Origin: Chitinophagaceae bacterium
Lineage (GTDB): Bacteria; Bacteroidota; Bacteroidia; Chitinophagales; Chitinophagaceae
DNA length: 64,000 bases
Assembly (NCBI GenBank): GCA_947451985.1
Contig: CANGBQ010000001.1
Span: forward strand, 11,471-75,470
Direction of reading: 5' to 3'
Part shown: positions 6,462 through 25,028 of the stretch, one piece after another
Layout of the letters: the number at the start of each line of letters is the position of its first letter
How positions within the stretch are numbered: the stretch's first letter is position 1
Notes under the pieces: model-generated
What the model was told of the DNA's origin: nothing
What the model saw: only the letters and a program-made list of their open reading frames with translations
Databases searched by the model: none
Program-made: the position numbers and the translations under genes

Positions 6462-8621
6462 ATGAAAAAATTGATTCTATCCCTTGTTTTATTGGCTAGC
6501 TTGTTTCAAGCCAAGGCTGATGAAGGCATGTGGTTGCCCATGCTCTTGGGAAAACAAGTGTATAACAACATGGTTAAGAAAGGCTTAAAGCTTTCAAAAG
6601 ACCAATTGTATTCCATCAATCATGCATCACTCAAAGATGCCATCCTCATTTTTGGAGGCGGTTGTACCGGTGAAATTGTGAGCAATCAAGGCTTGATATT
6701 CACCAATCACCATTGCGGATACGGTGCTATTGCGGCTGCCAGCAGTGTTCAAAACAATTATTTGAGGGATGGTTTTTATGCATACAACAAAGACCAGGAA
6801 ATTCAAAGCCAATTGACCGTGCAGTTTTTGGATCGCATAGTAGATGTGACCGCTGATGTGGAAGCTGGTTTGAAAGGATTGAGCTGGGCGGACAGACAAA
6901 AGAAATTACAAGAAGTATATAAATCTATTACAGATAAAGTAGCCGATAAGGAAAATGGATTGTCTGGCAGAATCTACAGCATGTTCAAAGACAATCAATA
7001 CCTGATGTATGTATACAAAGTATACCGCGACATTCGATTGGTGGGCGCTCCACCAGAAAGCGTAGGAAAATTCGGGGGAGACACCGACAACTGGGAGTGG
7101 CCTCGTCACACAGGTGATTTTTCTATTTTCAGGGTATATGGGTCTAAAGACGGAAAACCAGCCGACTATAGCAAAGAAAATGTGCCTTTGAAACCCAAGC
7201 ATTTTCTTCCGGTAAGCATCAAGGGTATCAAAGACGGTGACTATGCCATGATATATGGATATCCTGGTAGTACCAATCGTTACGAAACCAGCTATGGGAT
7301 CAAATTGAAAAATGAAATTGAAAATCCTTCTTTGGTAGCATTAAGAGACATGCGTTTAAAATTCATGCATGAGCAAATGATCAAAGATCCTGCTGTAAAA
7401 TTAAAACTGGCATCTGATTATGCTGGTATCGCTAACTATTGGAAGTTTTTCGATGGCGAAACCAAACAGTTGACCAAATTCAACACCTTCGGTCAGAAAC
7501 AACAATTTGAAAAAGATTTTGCTGCTTGGGCAAAAGGAAAACCCGAGTACGAAAATATTTTTACTGAATACGACAAAAATTACGCTGCCTGGACGCCTTA
7601 TAGTAAGCATCGCCAATACCTCAGAGAAGGCATATTGGGTTCTCCGCTATCAGCTTTTGCTTCTTCGTTGATTGCATTGGAAACTGCATTGACAAAAGCA
7701 GATGCTTCTGCTGCAGACATCAAAAAAGCCATGGATGCGGCAGATGCAGCCAGAAAAACTTTCTTAGCCGCAGAGGACATGCCGAGCGACAATAATATTT
7801 TGGCAGCAGTTGCACAGGCCTTCCATCGTGATATAGACAAAAGCCAGCATCCTGCAGGCGTCTATGATTCACTGGCCAAGTACGGTTCATTGGACGACGA
7901 AGCCACCTATAAAAAATGGGCAAAAGACGTATTTGCCAACACCATGATCTTGAGCAACGATAAATGGAGCGCTTTTGCTTCGAATCCGACTGCTGGGGTT
8001 TTGCAAGCAGATCCTGCTTTTGCATTTGCCGCTACATTCGTTAAAAATTACAATACCAAGTATGCACCGCTTTATACTGCGTTTGTGAGCAAAAACAATG
8101 AACTCGGTAGAAGTTATTTGAAGGGTATCATGGAGAGAGATCCCAAAGCTGCTAAAAAAATGTATCCAGATGCCAATTTTAGTATGCGCGTAAGCTATGG
8201 CAATGTAAAAAGCTACCAGCCCAGGGATGCTGTTTATTATGATTATGTGACGACTGCCAAAGGTATTTTGGAGAAGTATGTGCCCGGTGATTATGAATTT
8301 GATTTGCCGAGCAAACAAGTGGAACTTTTCAAGAAAAAAGATTTTGGACAGTATATAGATACAGCCAGAAAGGATTTGGTTATCGCTTTTATCACTACCA
8401 ATGACATCACAGGTGGAAACAGTGGCAGTCCTGTGATAGATGCCAAAGGAAATTTGATAGGCTTGGCTTTTGACGGGAACTATGAAGCATTGAGTCATAA
8501 AATTGCATTTGACAAAGACTTAAATCGTACCATTTGCGTGGACGTTCGCTATGTATTGTGGTGTGTGGACAAATTGGGAGGTGCCAAGAATTTGATCGAT
8601 GAATTGAAGCTGGTTAAATAA
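6462..8621 (+). CDS. S46-family dipeptidyl peptidase (DPP7-like), exported
   Basis: Signal peptide, ADEGMWLP, TNHHC (His), DNWEWPRHTGDF (Asp) and DITGGNSGSPV (Ser). LAFDGN has Gly at the S1 position, as in DPP7 rather than the Arg of DPP11. Confidence 0.9.
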   Translation: MKKLILSLVLLASLFQAKADEGMWLPMLLGKQVYNNMVKKGLKLSKDQLYSINHASLKDAILIFGGGCTGEIVSNQGLIFTNHHCGYGAIAAASSVQNNYLRDGFYAYNKDQEIQSQLTVQFLDRIVDVTADVEAGLKGLSWADRQKKLQEVYKSITDKVADKENGLSGRIYSMFKDNQYLMYVYKVYRDIRLVGAPPESVGKFGGDTDNWEWPRHTGDFSIFRVYGSKDGKPADYSKENVPLKPKHFLPVSIKGIKDGDYAMIYGYPGSTNRYETSYGIKLKNEIENPSLVALRDMRLKFMHEQMIKDPAVKLKLASDYAGIANYWKFFDGETKQLTKFNTFGQKQQFEKDFAAWAKGKPEYENIFTEYDKNYAAWTPYSKHRQYLREGILGSPLSAFASSLIALETALTKADASAADIKKAMDAADAARKTFLAAEDMPSDNNILAAVAQAFHRDIDKSQHPAGVYDSLAKYGSLDDEATYKKWAKDVFANTMILSNDKWSAFASNPTAGVLQADPAFAFAATFVKNYNTKYAPLYTAFVSKNNELGRSYLKGIMERDPKAAKKMYPDANFSMRVSYGNVKSYQPRDAVYYDYVTTAKGILEKYVPGDYEFDLPSKQVELFKKKDFGQYIDTARKDLVIAFITTNDITGGNSGSPVIDAKGNLIGLAFDGNYEALSHKIAFDKDLNRTICVDVRYVLWCVDKLGGAKNLIDELKLVK

Positions 8622-8641
8622 GTATCCAGGAATTGGATGAC

Positions 8642-8670
8642 AAGCCGCTGTTTTCACAGCGGCTTTTTTT
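8642..8670 (+). terminator. Intrinsic terminator after the S46 peptidase gene
   Basis: AAGCCGCTGT-TTTC-ACAGCGGCTT followed by a T run. Confidence 0.85.
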
Positions 8671-8717
8671 ATGCTAAAAACCTGTTTGATGCTTCTGCAT
8701 CGGTGAATAAAAACGCT

Positions 8718-8743: not shown

Positions 8744-9718
8744 ATGCAAAAGGGTCCTGTTTCACAGTATATTCAACACCATTATCGTCATTTCAACGCG
8801 GCTGCTTTGATGGATGCCGCCAAAGGATATGAAACCCACCTGCTGGAAGGCGGAAAAATGATGGTTACCCTGGCTGGTGCCATGAGTACTGCTGAATTGG
8901 GATTGAGTTTTGCCGAAATGATTCGCCAAGACAAGGTGGCCATCATCAGTTGTACTGGTGCCAATTTGGAAGAAGACATCATGAACCTGGTGGCGCACAG
9001 TCATTACAAAAGAGTGCCCAATTACAGAGACCTGAGTCCACAAGACGAATGGGACTTATTGGAAAATCATTACAATCGTGTAACCGATACTTGCATCCCC
9101 GAAGAAGAAGCATTCAGAAGGCTGCAAAAACACATTCATCAGTTGTGGAGTGAAGCAGATCAAAAAGGGGAGCGCTATTTTCCGCATGAATTCATGTACA
9201 AAATGTTATTGAGTGGCGTATTGGAGCAATACTATGAAATTGATCCAAAGAACAGCTGGATGTTGGCAGCGGCTCAAAAAAACATTCCCATTGTCGTGCC
9301 CGGATGGGAAGACAGCACGATGGGAAATATTTTTGCTTCCTATGTGATTAAAAATGAAATGAAAGCTTCTACCATGAAAAGTGGTATTGAATATATGGTG
9401 TGGCTATCCGATTGGTACAGACAAAATGCTGGTGGAAAAGGAGTGGGCTTCTTTCAAATTGGCGGAGGCATCGCGGGCGATTTCCCTATCTGTGTAGTAC
9501 CGATGATGTACCAAGACTTGGAATGGCACGATGTGCCTTTCTGGAGCTATTTCTGTCAAATCAGTGATTCTACTACTTCTTATGGCTCGTATTCGGGTGC
9601 AGTTCCCAATGAAAAAATTACCTGGGGTAAGCTGGATATCAACACACCTAAGTTTATTGTAGAGAGCGATGCTACGATTGTTGCTCCTTTGATATTTGCC
9701 TGGGTGCTGGGTTGGTAA
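8744..9718 (+). CDS. Deoxyhypusine synthase-like protein (probable homospermidine synthase)
   Basis: AGAMST.ELG, CTGANLEED, DSTMGN, IGGGIAGDF and SDS...GSYSGA.PNEKITWGK motifs. Confidence 0.88.
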   Translation: MQKGPVSQYIQHHYRHFNAAALMDAAKGYETHLLEGGKMMVTLAGAMSTAELGLSFAEMIRQDKVAIISCTGANLEEDIMNLVAHSHYKRVPNYRDLSPQDEWDLLENHYNRVTDTCIPEEEAFRRLQKHIHQLWSEADQKGERYFPHEFMYKMLLSGVLEQYYEIDPKNSWMLAAAQKNIPIVVPGWEDSTMGNIFASYVIKNEMKASTMKSGIEYMVWLSDWYRQNAGGKGVGFFQIGGGIAGDFPICVVPMMYQDLEWHDVPFWSYFCQISDSTTSYGSYSGAVPNEKITWGKLDINTPKFIVESDATIVAPLIFAWVLGW

Positions 9719-11827: not shown

Positions 11828-12664
11828 TTAGCTCCACTGTTTTTCTTCTTTTATGTTTTGCTTGTCTACCCTGGCCGCAATCAATACGCTGACTTCATAT
11901 AAAAGCAACAATGGCACCGCCACAATAACCTGACTGGTCCAGTCGGGAGAGGGCGTGATGACAGCCGCCACAATCAAAATGATTACAAATGCATATTTTC
12001 TGTAATTCCTCAAAAAGTTTGCACTGATCAATCCGATTTTTGCCAATACATAAGCCAATACTGGCAATTCAAAAGAGAGGCCACAACCCAAGATGATATT
12101 GTTCAGCGAATCAATGTAATCGTCCAATGTGGGCATGTATTTGTAGGCGCCCGTAGTGCCCAGGGTGAAATTGGCCAGAAAATTAAATGTAAAAGGAGCC
12201 AATAGAAAATATCCAAAAGCAGCACCCATAAAAAAACAAAGAGAAACCCAGAAGATGCTTCCTCTAGAATACTTCAGCTCTTTCGGAGACAATGCGGGCT
12301 TGATAAACTTCCACAACTCCCAGAATAAATAAGGAAATGCTACAATGAGTCCGCCTACCATCGCAATGGACATAGCTGACATAAAGGGGCCACTGATGGT
12401 ATTGCCTTGTAATTGAATATTGATTGGAGGCATGCACAATGCTTCACCCAAATGCAATTGGTGGCTTAGGTTACACAAGAATCCATAGGTAACAAAATCA
12501 TTGTGTGCAGGAGCGTAAATGATATGATCGAAAATCCAATCGATGTTGATAAAAATAGCAATGGCTGCTATTAGCCAAACCACCACCGATTTCACCAAGT
12601 GCCATCTCAAGGCTTCGAGGTGATCAATAAAACTCATTTCGGATTTTCCCTTGGGGTTGCTCAT
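11828..12664 (-). CDS. tatC: Twin-arginine translocase subunit TatC
   Basis: EMSFIDHLE.LRW, W.FIKPAL...E, FELPV, AAVITPSPD, LLYE.S. Confidence 0.93.
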   Translation of the reverse strand: MSNPKGKSEMSFIDHLEALRWHLVKSVVVWLIAAIAIFINIDWIFDHIIYAPAHNDFVTYGFLCNLSHQLHLGEALCMPPINIQLQGNTISGPFMSAMSIAMVGGLIVAFPYLFWELWKFIKPALSPKELKYSRGSIFWVSLCFFMGAAFGYFLLAPFTFNFLANFTLGTTGAYKYMPTLDDYIDSLNNIILGCGLSFELPVLAYVLAKIGLISANFLRNYRKYAFVIILIVAAVITPSPDWTSQVIVAVPLLLLYEVSVLIAARVDKQNIKEEKQWS

Positions 12665-12692
12665 GACGAGGAATTAAATACTGCTTTGGTGG

Positions 12693-12700
12693 CAAAGGTA
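12693..12700 (-). promoter_or_regulatory. -7 element (TACCTTTG) for tatC-rpiB-M28
   Basis: Exact TAnnTTTG, 28 nt upstream of the tatC ATG and downstream of the 12749-12781 terminator. Confidence 0.6.
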
Positions 12701-12748
12701 GCACCATTTATATTTTCAACTCCAAGATATTCAATCATTCTTTTCTTC

Positions 12749-12781
12749 AAAAAAAAGAAGGCCCCTGTAGAAACAGGGGCC
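12749..12781 (-). terminator. Directional intrinsic terminator (minus strand)
   Basis: GGCCCCTGT-TTCT-ACAGGGGCC followed by TTCTTTTTTTT. There is no U-tract on the plus-strand side. Confidence 0.85.
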
Positions 12782-12828
12782 GTTCACAAAACTAACTGCG
12801 TATGAAAAAACTTAACCATCGTTTTTCA
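12749..12828 (-). ncRNA. Candidate ~80-nt small RNA (two hairpins, sigma54-type promoter)
   Basis: Bounded by a -24/-12 motif (12840-12853) and the terminator. 5' hairpin UGAAAAAC/GUUUUUUCA. No sizeable ORF on this strand. Prediction only. Confidence 0.5.
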
Positions 12829-12839
12829 ATACAACAGGG

Positions 12840-12853
12840 GCAAAGAACATGCC
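12840..12853 (-). promoter_or_regulatory. Putative sigma54 (RpoN) -24/-12 promoter
   Basis: Minus strand reads GG-CATGTTCTTT-GC, with the exact GG-N10-GC spacing plus GGCAyG and TTGC cores. It deviates from consensus at -26 (G) and -11 (C). Confidence 0.5.
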
Positions 12854-12904
12854 CAATCTCTTTATAATTGTTAAGAATTAGCCAAGATTGCCAGTACATC
12901 TCTT

Positions 12905-13969
12905 TTATTGCTGCGTGGTCAGTTTTTCTGCATTTTCAGCAAACTGCAGGGCATCAATAAACTCTTGAATTTCGCCATTGATAACTGTATCGAGGTTGTA
13001 GACAGTCAATCCGATTCTGTGATCGGTGACCCTGCCCTGCGGATAATTATAGGTTCTAATTTTGGCACTGCGATCGCCTGTGCTCACCAAGCTTTTCCGT
13101 TGTTTGGAAATGGCTTCTTCTGCTTTTCTTACCTCTTCATCATACAATTTGGTTCGAAGCATGTCCATCGCTTTTTCCCGATTGGCCAACTGGCTTCTCT
13201 CTGTTTGGCAAACCACTACAATGCCCGTGGGTTTATGGGTTAGAAACACTTTGGTTTCTACCTTGTTCACGTTCTGGCCTCCCGCACCGCCACTTCGCGC
13301 GGTTTCCATTTTTACATCACTTTCTTTTAATTCGAAATCAATTTCATCTGCTTCCGGCATAATGGCTACGGTAGCCGCACTGGTGTGTACCCGGCCACTG
13401 CTTTCAGTATCCGGAACCCTTTGTACCCGATGAACGCCGCTTTCAAATTTCATCGTGCCGTATACATCATCTCCTTTAATTTCCACCTGCACCTCTTTGT
13501 ATCCGCCCACCGTTCCTTCGCTTTCGCTGAGAATGGCTGTCTTCCAGCCTTTCTTCTCACAATATTTGATGTACATCCTTAACAAGTTCCCGGCAAACAA
13601 AGAGGCTTCGTCCCCGCCGGTACCTGCCCTGATTTCCAAGATGGCATTTTTCTCATCAAATGGATCTTTAGGAATCAGCATGGTTCTGATTTCCTTCTCC
13701 AGTTGCTCTTGTTGTGTTTCCAATGCGGGCAATTCCAATTTGGCCATATTGCGCATCTCTTCGTCATCAGAATGCAGTACTTCTTTATTGAAAGCGATGT
13801 CATCTAATAATTTTACATAGGCGTTCCGAACGTCCACAATTTTTCCCAAACTGCGATATTCCTTGCTCATGGCGCTAAACTTCTTATTGTCGCTTACAAT
13901 TTCAGGATTGGTCAATGCCACCCCGAGGTTGTCGAATTTCGCCTTGATCGCATCTAGTTTATCTAACAT
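12905..13969 (-). CDS. prfA: Peptide chain release factor 1
   Basis: GGQ motif, PxT recognition tripeptide (RVPDTE), [26 protein letters not shown]. Confidence 0.96.
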
Positions 13970-24508: not shown

Positions 24509-24515
24509 TATTCGT

Positions 24516-25028
24516 ATGAAACAAATTTTTAGCATCGTTTTTTGCCTGTTTTTGGCGTTTAGCACCCTTGGCCAAACACCCTATACCACTGCTGCTGATC
24601 CCCAACATCCCGGCGGGTTGATATTGAATGGTGTGCTGACCAAGTACATTTTGATCAATGAAAAGTCTTTCAAATGGTATGGTGCCAATCAAAATGGATA
24701 CCAACCTGATGCAAGTATGGTAACGACTATGGCCGCTGCAAAAGACTCTTTTCATGTTGTGATTTTCGGGGGCACTTGGTGCGACGACACCCAGTTTATA
24801 TTGCCAAGGTTTTTTAAAATTCAGGAGCTGAGTGGTTTTCCCGACAGCCGCGTGACTTTTTTTGGGGTAGATAGAAACAAAAAAACATTGGGCAATGCAG
24901 GCGCTGCTTTTCAACTGCAAAATATTCCTACCATTATTGTCATGAAGAACGGAAAGGAAGTGGGCAGGGTAGTAGAATATGGTAAAACAGGCAAATGGGA
25001 CGCAGAACTGTCGTCTTTGCTTCAATAA
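24516..25028 (+). CDS. Exported thioredoxin-fold protein (CxxT active site)
   Basis: Signal peptide, FGGTWCDDT, cis-Pro loop NIPTIIV..NGKE.GR.VE. Confidence 0.8.
   Translation: MKQIFSIVFCLFLAFSTLGQTPYTTAADPQHPGGLILNGVLTKYILINEKSFKWYGANQNGYQPDASMVTTMAAAKDSFHVVIFGGTWCDDTQFILPRFFKIQELSGFPDSRVTFFGVDRNKKTLGNAGAAFQLQNIPTIIVMKNGKEVGRVVEYGKTGKWDAELSSLLQ

Follow-up and report, generated by a model that had tools for sequence, protein, structure and literature searches.

What kind of element carries the segment at positions 12785–12817 of the 64,000-nucleotide (nt) stretch of Chitinophagaceae DNA analyzed here (hereafter, the window), and does its complementarity to translation starts have a regulatory meaning? 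The plus strand of the segment is CACAAAACTAACTGCGTATGAAAAAACTTAACC, and the minus-strand reading, taken directly from the sequence, is GGUUAAGUUUUUUCAUACGCAGUUAGUUUUGUG. The segment is located in a 240-nt intergenic gap flanked by prfA and tatC, both of which are on the minus strand. It had been described in the initial annotation as part of a candidate small RNA with an anti-start-codon seed, by which many Met-Lys-Lys signal-peptide mRNAs would be repressed at once. This interpretation was supported in part. The segment forms the core of a genuine family of small-RNA genes in Chitinophagaceae, which is undescribed in Rfam or in the papers searched, and, as judged from its sequence, the underlying object appears to be a sigma-54-type small RNA of the FopS/GibS kind that is new to both sources. 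On balance, and with confidence only slightly above even, we favor a trans-acting small RNA of ~80 nt with a sigma-54-type promoter and its own terminator, whose extended seed would mask the start codons of exported-protein and SusC mRNAs. To our knowledge, Bacteroidota are without Shine-Dalgarno (SD) sequences and Hfq, and the targeting and silencing of mRNAs by small RNAs is known in this phylum from a few Bacteroides examples only.

A small-RNA gene family in Chitinophagaceae

The intergenic gap was compared with related genomes by BLAST, and only query positions ~90–156 were conserved, at 75–94% identity. These positions correspond to 12815–12749 of the window, that is, the segment together with its terminator. 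In a BLAST-based search at the genus level, the element was present in 33 of 61 genomes, and each of these 33 belonged to the 37 genomes that represent the window's genus. Many of them have it at 2–4 places, in some cases in tandem. An exact-pattern scan with one genome per species gave at least 120 stretches; among the matches listed, almost all were from Chitinophagaceae or related bacteria, including Ferruginibacter, Sediminibacterium, Terrimonas, Niabella, Flavihumibacter, Chitinophaga, Niastella, Puia, and others; Sediminibacterium salmoneum, Terrimonas ferruginea, and Flavihumibacter petaseus were among the species named. A covariance model made from 143 aligned copies (alignment A1) was positive in 114 of 151 genomes (at least 90% complete) and in 103 of 135 genera, with 1–15 copies in each positive genome. 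In the window, covariance model R1 matched positions 12741–12818 with 70.8 bits (E 1.7e-16), and this was the sole copy in the window's own genome. The Rfam 15 scan of the window returned no family at gathering score, a permissive Rfam scan of 12600–12960 returned noise only (14–19 bits), and nothing relevant was found in the literature on a sigma-54 small RNA in Chitinophaga, Chitinophagaceae, or Bacteroidetes.

The copies of the family were not uniform in arrangement. Tandem arrays of 2–3 copies at ~165–200-nt spacing were seen at L151 (G013:C13), L155 (G119:C54), L158, and L160, and each copy in the arrays L151, L155, and L158 had its own -24/-12 element. In many loci (e.g., L040, L100-L103, and L124), a second half-copy of the core (CUCACAUAAAGCAGUCAA) was located directly 5' of the main core, which results in two CAUAAGCAGU-like motifs per RNA. 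A divergent copy in the complete genome G163 (~801737, minus strand; AAAUUUUCAUAAGCAGUUGGUUUUGGU with a terminator) had a UUUUCAU seed and began immediately behind a gene's stop codon, as a member of the 3' untranslated region (UTR) type; the C-terminus encoded by the gene ahead of it resembles a small heat-shock protein, by eye only. The window's own genome (G000) is 1.78 megabases (Mb) long and 92% complete, whereas the other genomes of the genus have 2–6 Mb. With only 2–3 SusC-like genes and one small-RNA copy, it hence represents a streamlined lineage.

Promoter, terminator, and strand

The predicted small RNA spans ~80 nt on the minus strand (12828–12749). Its 5' end is the predicted sigma-54 start (~12828), which was set 12 nt past the -12 GC, and its 3' end is the last position of the U-tail (12749). 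The RNA is preceded by the sigma-54-type promoter TTGGGCATGTTCTTTGC (12856–12840, minus strand). In this promoter, GGCATG-N4-TTGC (12853–12840) sets the -24 GG (12853–12852) and the -12 GC (12841–12840) at the canonical sigma-54 spacing; a simple scan had labelled this stretch as a terminator-like hairpin. The promoter motif is common in the family. TTAACA-N~17-TTGGCA-N4-aTTTGCGTTAt was found within 90 nt upstream of 91 of the 163 distinct copies (56%), compared with 1.2% of random windows. The TTAACA part, located at 12874–12869 (minus strand) upstream of the -24 element, is kept across the family in the promoter frequency matrix of the 91 copies. It lies ~15–17 nt upstream of the -24 element, is also found in copies with Bacteroidetes TAnnTTTG-type promoters, and may be a regulator-binding site. 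We infer from these elements that the gene is transcribed and that its transcription depends on sigma-54. The U-run of the segment was also considered as a Bacteroidetes -7 promoter box (TAAGTTTT), and this was ruled out because the box is absent from the family consensus.

The own genome encodes rpoN on contig C74 and one clear enhancer-binding protein on contig C76 (L192:781-2034, minus strand). The latter is a protein of 417 amino acids (aa) with an AAA+ domain at its very start, an HTH_8 end, and no receiver or sensor domain, and its gene sits between miaB and lptE. This protein could be the regulator of the small RNA, and its gene neighborhood could be a hint of a link to the cell envelope.

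The interval from the promoter to the terminator is ~47 nt and includes the segment. The Rho-independent terminator GGCCCCUGUUUCUACAGGGGCC with its U8 tail (12781–12749, minus strand) was identified by a terminator scan and by covariation. In its helix, 98.1% of the alignment cells were paired and eight of eight pairs were changed on both sides. None of 500 shuffles matched the paired cells or the covariation score, and 2 of 500 matched the number of pairs changed on both sides. The loop UUUCYA (12767–12772 on the minus strand; A1 columns 46–51) was at least 90% conserved, while the stem covaried. UUUCU is common to the consensus seed and the terminator loop, which is unusual for a plain terminator.

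The signal might instead belong to the plus strand, where the ATGAAAAAA at 12802 would start a 21-codon micro-open reading frame (MKKLNHRFSIQQGQRTCPISL). A frame is open from 12802 (+) to a TAA stop, but in the homologs the opposite-strand frame differs from copy to copy in size and sequence (in L005, for example, it has only 8 codons) and is partly the complement of the promoter. Moreover, conservation ends right after the ATG, and both the terminator U-tail and the promoter are oriented to the minus strand. A coding origin of the signal is extremely improbable.

Conservation of the seed

The family core of the window copy, AAGUUUUUUCAUACGCAGUUAGUUUUGUG (12813–12785, minus strand), is the presumed extended seed and corresponds to the consensus AAUUUUCUCAUAAGCAGUUAGUUUUGGU in the 143-copy alignment. 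The pattern search itself makes the central 18 nt of the core invariant, but the flanking TTTCT and GT, which are outside this bias, were at least 90% conserved in the 143 copies. CAU was retained, together with a U-rich 5' flank, in all copies that were inspected, among them the divergent paralogs detected with BLAST or the covariance model. When 82 homologs were folded from the predicted sigma-54 start, the mean unpaired probability of UUUUCU-CAU-AA was 0.54–0.84, and a conserved 5' hairpin was not found in these homologs.

Within the core, the anti-start segment UUUUUUCAUA (12810–12801, minus strand; CAU at 12804–12802) is the exact complement of UAUGAAAAAA, and both this complementarity and the RNA string had been given correctly in the initial annotation. 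The family consensus at this place is UUUUCUCAUA. The U-run was UUUUCUCAU in more than 90% of the 143 aligned copies, UUUUUUCAU in the window and L150, CUUUUUCAU in L154, UGUUUUCAU in L153, and AAUUUUCAU in the second G163 copy. The consensus UUUUCUCAU mismatches AUGAAAAAA and matches AUGAGAAAA, a start that is ~10 times rarer than ATGAAAAAA (0.23% vs 2.4% of 869 family-locus open reading frames (ORFs), and 16 vs 130 ORFs in G163). The window copy departs from the consensus at three places (C to U, A to C, and GGU to GUG). Of these, the C-to-U change yields the perfect anti-UAUGAAAAAA match, and it is common only to the window, L150, and, partly, L154.

The anti-AUG element with its U-rich flank is a family trait, whereas the perfect UAUGAAAAAA complement is not. 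Complementarity to Met-Lys-Lys starts is a lineage-specific by-product and not the design of the family. The U-for-C change is best read as a lineage-specific change that broadens weak A/U (and G.U) pairing and weakens the ancestral fit. An anti-start-codon seed as such remains plausible in view of the conserved CAU/U-rich core and the GibS/FopS precedent, while the perfect match to UAUGAAAAAA is peculiar to this genome.

Predicted pairing with SusC-type and exported-protein mRNAs

In the favored explanation, the single-stranded core (AAUUUUCUCAUAAGCAGUUAGUUUUGGU) would pair across the start codon. In this arrangement, AUG would be covered by CAU and the purine-rich codons two and three by the U-rich stretch, and GCAGUUAGUUUU would bind a leader that is A-rich (...AAAACUAAC...). 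Such base-pairing in vivo would block initiation on SD-less exported and outer-membrane mRNAs and thereby repress them, as the R1 seed of GibS/FopS does in Bacteroides. The best-supported target class would be SusC-type TonB-dependent transporters. The window copy itself would be a drifted variant, in which, owing to the changes, the seed is predicted to be drawn into two local hairpins and the SusC starts of the own genome are matched less closely.

SusC-like ORFs were picked by hidden Markov model in the own genome and in 2.8 Mb of the complete genome G163. The difference in predicted pairing energy between SusC-like and other starts was -3.89 kcal/mol in G163 (n = 8) and -6.47 kcal/mol in the own genome (n = 2), and none of 150 composition-matched shuffles was as good in either case. 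In unrelated family loci, the difference was -3.17 kcal/mol (n = 4), and 1 of 150 shuffles was as good. The SusC signal was mostly in the anti-start half of the core, where it was reached by 0 of 200 and 1 of 200 shuffles. In the predicted duplex, CAU lies on AUG and UAGUUUU on an AAAACUA-like leader, which was found for both SusC-like genes of the own genome and for two of the eight in G163. When ranked by pairing with the resident variant, the two SusC-like starts of the own genome fell at percentiles 1.8 and 4.7. Co-evolution of this variant with the own SusC starts was considered and ruled out, since the consensus core fits them better.

A wider bias toward exported proteins was also observed. 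Among the top 5% of predicted partners, 36% were signal-peptide-like compared with 18% overall in the own genome, and 33% compared with 22% in G163; none of 40 shuffles reached this in each case. The envelope targeting proposed in the initial annotation thereby survives in a softened form, as a bias of predicted partners that is suggestive and not proof. The six genes named there indeed start at the given positions, five with ATGAAAAAA at 6462 (+), 11318 (-), 22894 (+), 38458 (+), and 59135 (-) and the thioredoxin with CGTATGAAAC at 24513–24522. Their pairing ranks differed widely. The starts of the thioredoxin, the S46 peptidase, and the M23 peptidase were at the 1.4th, 2.2nd, and 3.8th percentile, respectively, whereas those of purH (10.6th), the DUF6089-like gene (39th), and the M28 peptidase (56th) were unremarkable. 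The start region of the neighboring tatC paired poorly with the core (56th percentile).

The second-ranked predicted target in the own genome was C154:338-1540 (+), which encodes an exported protein of 400 aa that contains a Trp/Tyr-rich repeat region and matches no Pfam family. It starts TATGAAAAAACTAACTGCC, and this start fits the small-RNA complement in two alternative 12-nt registers.

Accessibility of the window copy and genome-wide pairing

Several results weigh against start-codon masking as the function of the RNA. The SusC samples were small (8, 2, and 4 genes), the energies were calculated without an accessibility term, and the starts were crude first-ATG calls. For the 3' half of the core, pairing with the 5' UTR did not go beyond a trend, as 23 of 200 and 12 of 200 shuffles were as good. 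The seed of the window copy is largely paired in its predicted fold, which was obtained by partition function for five alternative start positions. UUUUUUC forms the 3' arm of a 7-base-pair (bp) hairpin, as had been cautioned in the initial annotation, and its unpaired probability was 0.1–0.2 at four starts (12830–12827) and 0.3–0.7 at 12826, where the stem is one pair short. This 5' hairpin is specific to the copy (12827–12804, minus strand) and consists of GAAAAAC (12827–12821), a loop, and GUUUUUUC (12811–12804). The three substitutions of the window copy create the GAAAAAC/GUUUUUUC and CGCAG/UUGUG hairpins, so that only AUA stays open. In addition, the predicted distance from the start to CAU was 19–64 nt in the 82 homologs and 24 nt in the window, while the FopS seed is at the 5' end; this distance rests on the -12 element only, and 5' processing is possible.

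The genome-wide results point in the same direction. Enrichment of start windows over shuffled seeds, which had been proposed in the initial annotation as a check, was not observed with 24 shuffles: the 36-nt seed paired with 1456 start regions of the own genome no better than the 24 shuffled seeds did, or than it paired with internal coding windows. The mean was -12.07 for the real seed, with 74 regions at -18 or below, and -12.15 ± 0.65 for the shuffled seeds, with 73.8 ± 34.5 regions. In G163, the consensus seed was slightly above the shuffles, but internal windows were better still. An excess of AUG-anchored matches over the position-specific expectation appeared also when the window seed was applied to G163 genes, for which it is foreign. 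The excess thus reflects correlated MKK/MRK signal-peptide codons, that is, start-context composition, and not selection for pairing. No target complementary to at least 22 of 25 core bases was found in 41 genomes; when the 25-mer was searched there in target sense, with as many as 3 mismatches allowed, only small-RNA genes were matched. The longest perfect complements to the core in the own genome were 13–15 nt long and scattered. For the 12-mer AAAACTAACTGC, ~123 matches outside the RNA genes were found in 151 genomes, compared with ~75 for the reversed control (own tally). The few of these that were at gene starts belonged to unrelated exported proteins, with no single conserved target among the 151 genomes. 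GCTT or GCGT just before the ATG showed small excesses only.

The same data bear on the broader proposal that UUUUUUCAUA is a global brake by which the majority of Met-Lys-Lys (ATGAAAAAA) signal-peptide mRNAs would be repressed together. In its favor, complementarity to UAUGAAAAAA is complete, and 85 own-genome genes that start with M(K/R)K and are not TonB receptors paired with the anti-start half as well as SusC did (-8.39 vs -8.40 kcal/mol). The enrichment of signal-peptide-like proteins in the top 5% of predicted partners agrees with it as well, as do the ranks (1.4–3.8th percentile) of the starts of the thioredoxin and of the S46 and M23 peptidases. Against these points, the match is not conserved, since more than 90% of the copies carry the C that mismatches AUGAAAAAA and fit a start that is ~10 times rarer; start regions were not enriched over shuffles; and the U-run of the window copy is predicted to be sequestered. 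The duplex of the anti-start half with MKK-start genes is A/U-only, 9–11 bp long, and ~-8.4 kcal/mol strong with the cost of hairpin opening excluded; with that cost included, it becomes marginal. Three of the six named starts (purH, M28 peptidase, and DUF6089-like) did not stand out. Furthermore, ATGAAAAAA is merely the commonest start context in the own genome, a caveat of the initial annotation that held: it was found in 57 of 1489 crudely called ORFs (3.8%), and 233 copies occurred genome-wide compared with ~39 estimated from base composition. In the window, it was also found at 9609+, 40874+, 48102-, and 38090-, in addition to 12802 itself. A match to five window starts is therefore unremarkable, and perfect complementarity to whichever start context is most frequent in a genome provides no evidence of a global regulon. 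We consider such a brake quite unlikely, and this central claim of the initial annotation was not borne out; lack of conservation in homologs and a sequestered seed had both been named there as grounds for refutation, and the data on conservation and the predicted fold of this copy go against the brake on both counts.

Whether the window copy still regulates anything was evaluated as well, because it could be a decaying or relaxed relic in a streamlined 1.78-Mb genome, in which the seed changes are drift and little or nothing is regulated. Its score of 70.8 bits compares with 78–92 bits for full-length copies without seed changes in the same search. Its three substitutions are at positions that are invariant or at least 90% conserved elsewhere, and they create the local hairpins that hide the seed. 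The own two SusC-like starts fit the consensus core (-18.3 and -17.9) better than the resident variant (-16.7 and -14.8), and there is a single copy here compared with 1–15 elsewhere. The window variant looks drifted because of this better fit of the consensus core, the low score, and the sole copy. However, the promoter spacing, TTAACA, and the terminator with its conserved loop are intact, and rpoN and the enhancer-binding protein are retained. The variant also still ranks the two SusC-like starts within the best 5% (1.8th and 4.7th percentile), and the C-to-U variant recurs independently in L150 and L154. Loss of function is accordingly an unlikely explanation, although less so than the global brake.

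Comparison with known small RNAs

The closest functional precedent for the favored explanation, a small RNA that masks start codons, is found in Bacteroides. The conserved single-stranded 5' seed of GibS pairs across the start codons of BT_0771 and BT_3893 (PMC7366714). In Bacteroides thetaiotaomicron, 14 FopS paralogs with a common R1 seed bind beside the susC-like start codon and block translation; they are antagonised by the RRM protein RbpB, and their predicted targets are enriched for outer-membrane proteins (PMC11697453). The FopS/GibS 5' seed is GUGUUUUUCAUAGUAUUAG according to the supplementary oligonucleotide list (PMC11697453). When this seed was aligned locally, the window scored 30 and the consensus 27, compared with shuffle means of 18.7 and 16.0, and these scores were reached by 10 of 2000 and 3 of 2000 shuffles, respectively; such a short stretch does not allow homology and convergence to be told apart. 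The motif common to the FopS/GibS seed and this family is U5-CAUA-N3-5-UUAG.

The likeness extends to further features. Both are multi-copy paralogous small RNAs of ~65–100 nt with an intrinsic terminator from the SD-less phylum Bacteroidota; multiple copies are a property of the family here (1–15 copies per genome), and the own genome has a single copy. Both have a U-rich single-stranded seed with CAU (GUGUUUUUCAUAGUAUUAG in FopS/GibS and AAGUUUUUUCAUACGCAGUUAG in the window), and both families have members derived from 3' UTRs. A bias toward SusC and outer-membrane or exported proteins would be common to both as well; the SusC block was demonstrated there, whereas the bias is only predicted here. 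The differences are also clear. FopS and GibS belong to Bacteroidales and the present family to Chitinophagales. Their promoters are sigma-ABfr (TAnnTTTG) in FopS and PM2 in GibS, whereas 56% of the copies here have the sigma-54 type; some family copies show TAnnTTTG-like boxes. The seed is at the extreme unstructured 5' end there and is predicted to be 19–64 nt internal here. The core here is longer (~27 nt, near-invariant), has another 3' half (GCAGUUAGUUUUGG), and is anti-AUGAGAAAA in its consensus. Because of the sigma-54-type promoter, the internal seed, the longer core, and the different order, the family was not filed as a FopS member; on the basis of sequence comparison, it would work like one and may share ancestry. 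Two RRM_1 proteins are encoded in the own genome and are possible chaperones for the small RNA.

For the sigma-54 multi-copy architecture, the closest parallel is Qrr of Vibrionaceae (RF00378). It is likewise multi-copy and has sigma-54 -24/-12 promoters, a long near-invariant single-stranded block, and a rho-independent terminator. Qrr belongs to another phylum, however, and shows no sequence or covariance-model similarity to the family. Its LuxO-type response regulator has no counterpart here, as the sole enhancer-binding protein has no receiver domain, and the family has no known link to Hfq or quorum sensing.

In Enterobacteria, the envelope-stress small RNAs RybB, MicA, MicL, and OmrA/B repress many outer-membrane protein mRNAs. 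They depend on sigma-E or OmpR, need Hfq, and act mostly by anti-Shine-Dalgarno or 5'-UTR pairing. Their likeness to the present family is one of concept only, namely a small RNA that is controlled by an alternative sigma factor and uses one seed to lower the expression of many envelope mRNAs at their translation starts. There is no sequence relation, and a global role was unsupported here by the start-region enrichment tests.

A more far-reaching proposal joins these comparisons. The seed with its U-rich-CAUA...UUAG pattern might be an ancient, phylum-wide anti-initiation code that Bacteroidales and Chitinophagales have by common descent. In Chitinophagaceae, it would have been rewired to sigma-54 and the sensor-less enhancer-binding protein next to lptE and would serve as a brake on envelope and nutrient uptake that acts on SusC-type and exported mRNAs, as a counterpart of the sigma-E small RNAs of Proteobacteria, while seed variants (U-for-C) would retune which MRK or MKK starts are hit. 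This proposal is speculative, and we regard it as doubtful.

If start-codon masking is correct, FopS-like control of SusC-type transporters would extend from gut Bacteroides to soil and freshwater Chitinophagaceae, and sigma-54 in Bacteroidota would gain a concrete and easily assayed output. The natural seed variants UUUUCUCAU, UUUUUUCAU, and UUUUCAU would provide a test of single-base retargeting between MRK-start and MKK-start mRNAs.

Genomic context

The upstream gene prfA (12905–13969, minus strand) encodes peptide chain release factor 1 (Pfam PCRF and RF-1), and the downstream gene tatC (11828–12664, minus strand) was identified by Pfam TatC. In 59 loci of the family, prfA precedes the RNA gene in the same orientation, so the window copy is the ancestral, syntenic copy. 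tatC is the first same-strand downstream gene in 22 family loci and the first or second in 24.

This arrangement also allows the element to be read as a 3' UTR or terminator of prfA and not as an independent base-pairing small RNA, in which case the core would be a protein-binding (e.g., RRM-type) or processing element. In the 59 loci, the element follows prfA directly and in the same orientation, and no convincing terminator separates the two, which fits such a reading. So do the presence of UUUCU in both the core and the conserved terminator loop, the failure to find a target complementary to at least 22 of 25 bases in the 41 genomes, the RRM_1 proteins of the genome, and the G163 copy located immediately after the stop codon of another gene. 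However, most genomes have extra copies away from prfA, including tandem arrays with their own -24/-12 elements. The SusC and signal-peptide pairing biases exceed all or nearly all shuffles, and the core resembles a proven base-pairing seed. A purely prfA-bound element is improbable, about as much so as the global brake, and the trans-acting small RNA remains the favored explanation.

Two minor observations concern the surroundings. A Gly-rich protein of ~220 aa with no Pfam match is encoded between prfA and the small-RNA gene in 40 loci of many genera and is absent from this window. At 8614–8683 (+) of the window, a weak covariance-model match (22 bits) was obtained, which is not a member of the family and looks like an intrinsic terminator with a similar GUUUUCAC loop.

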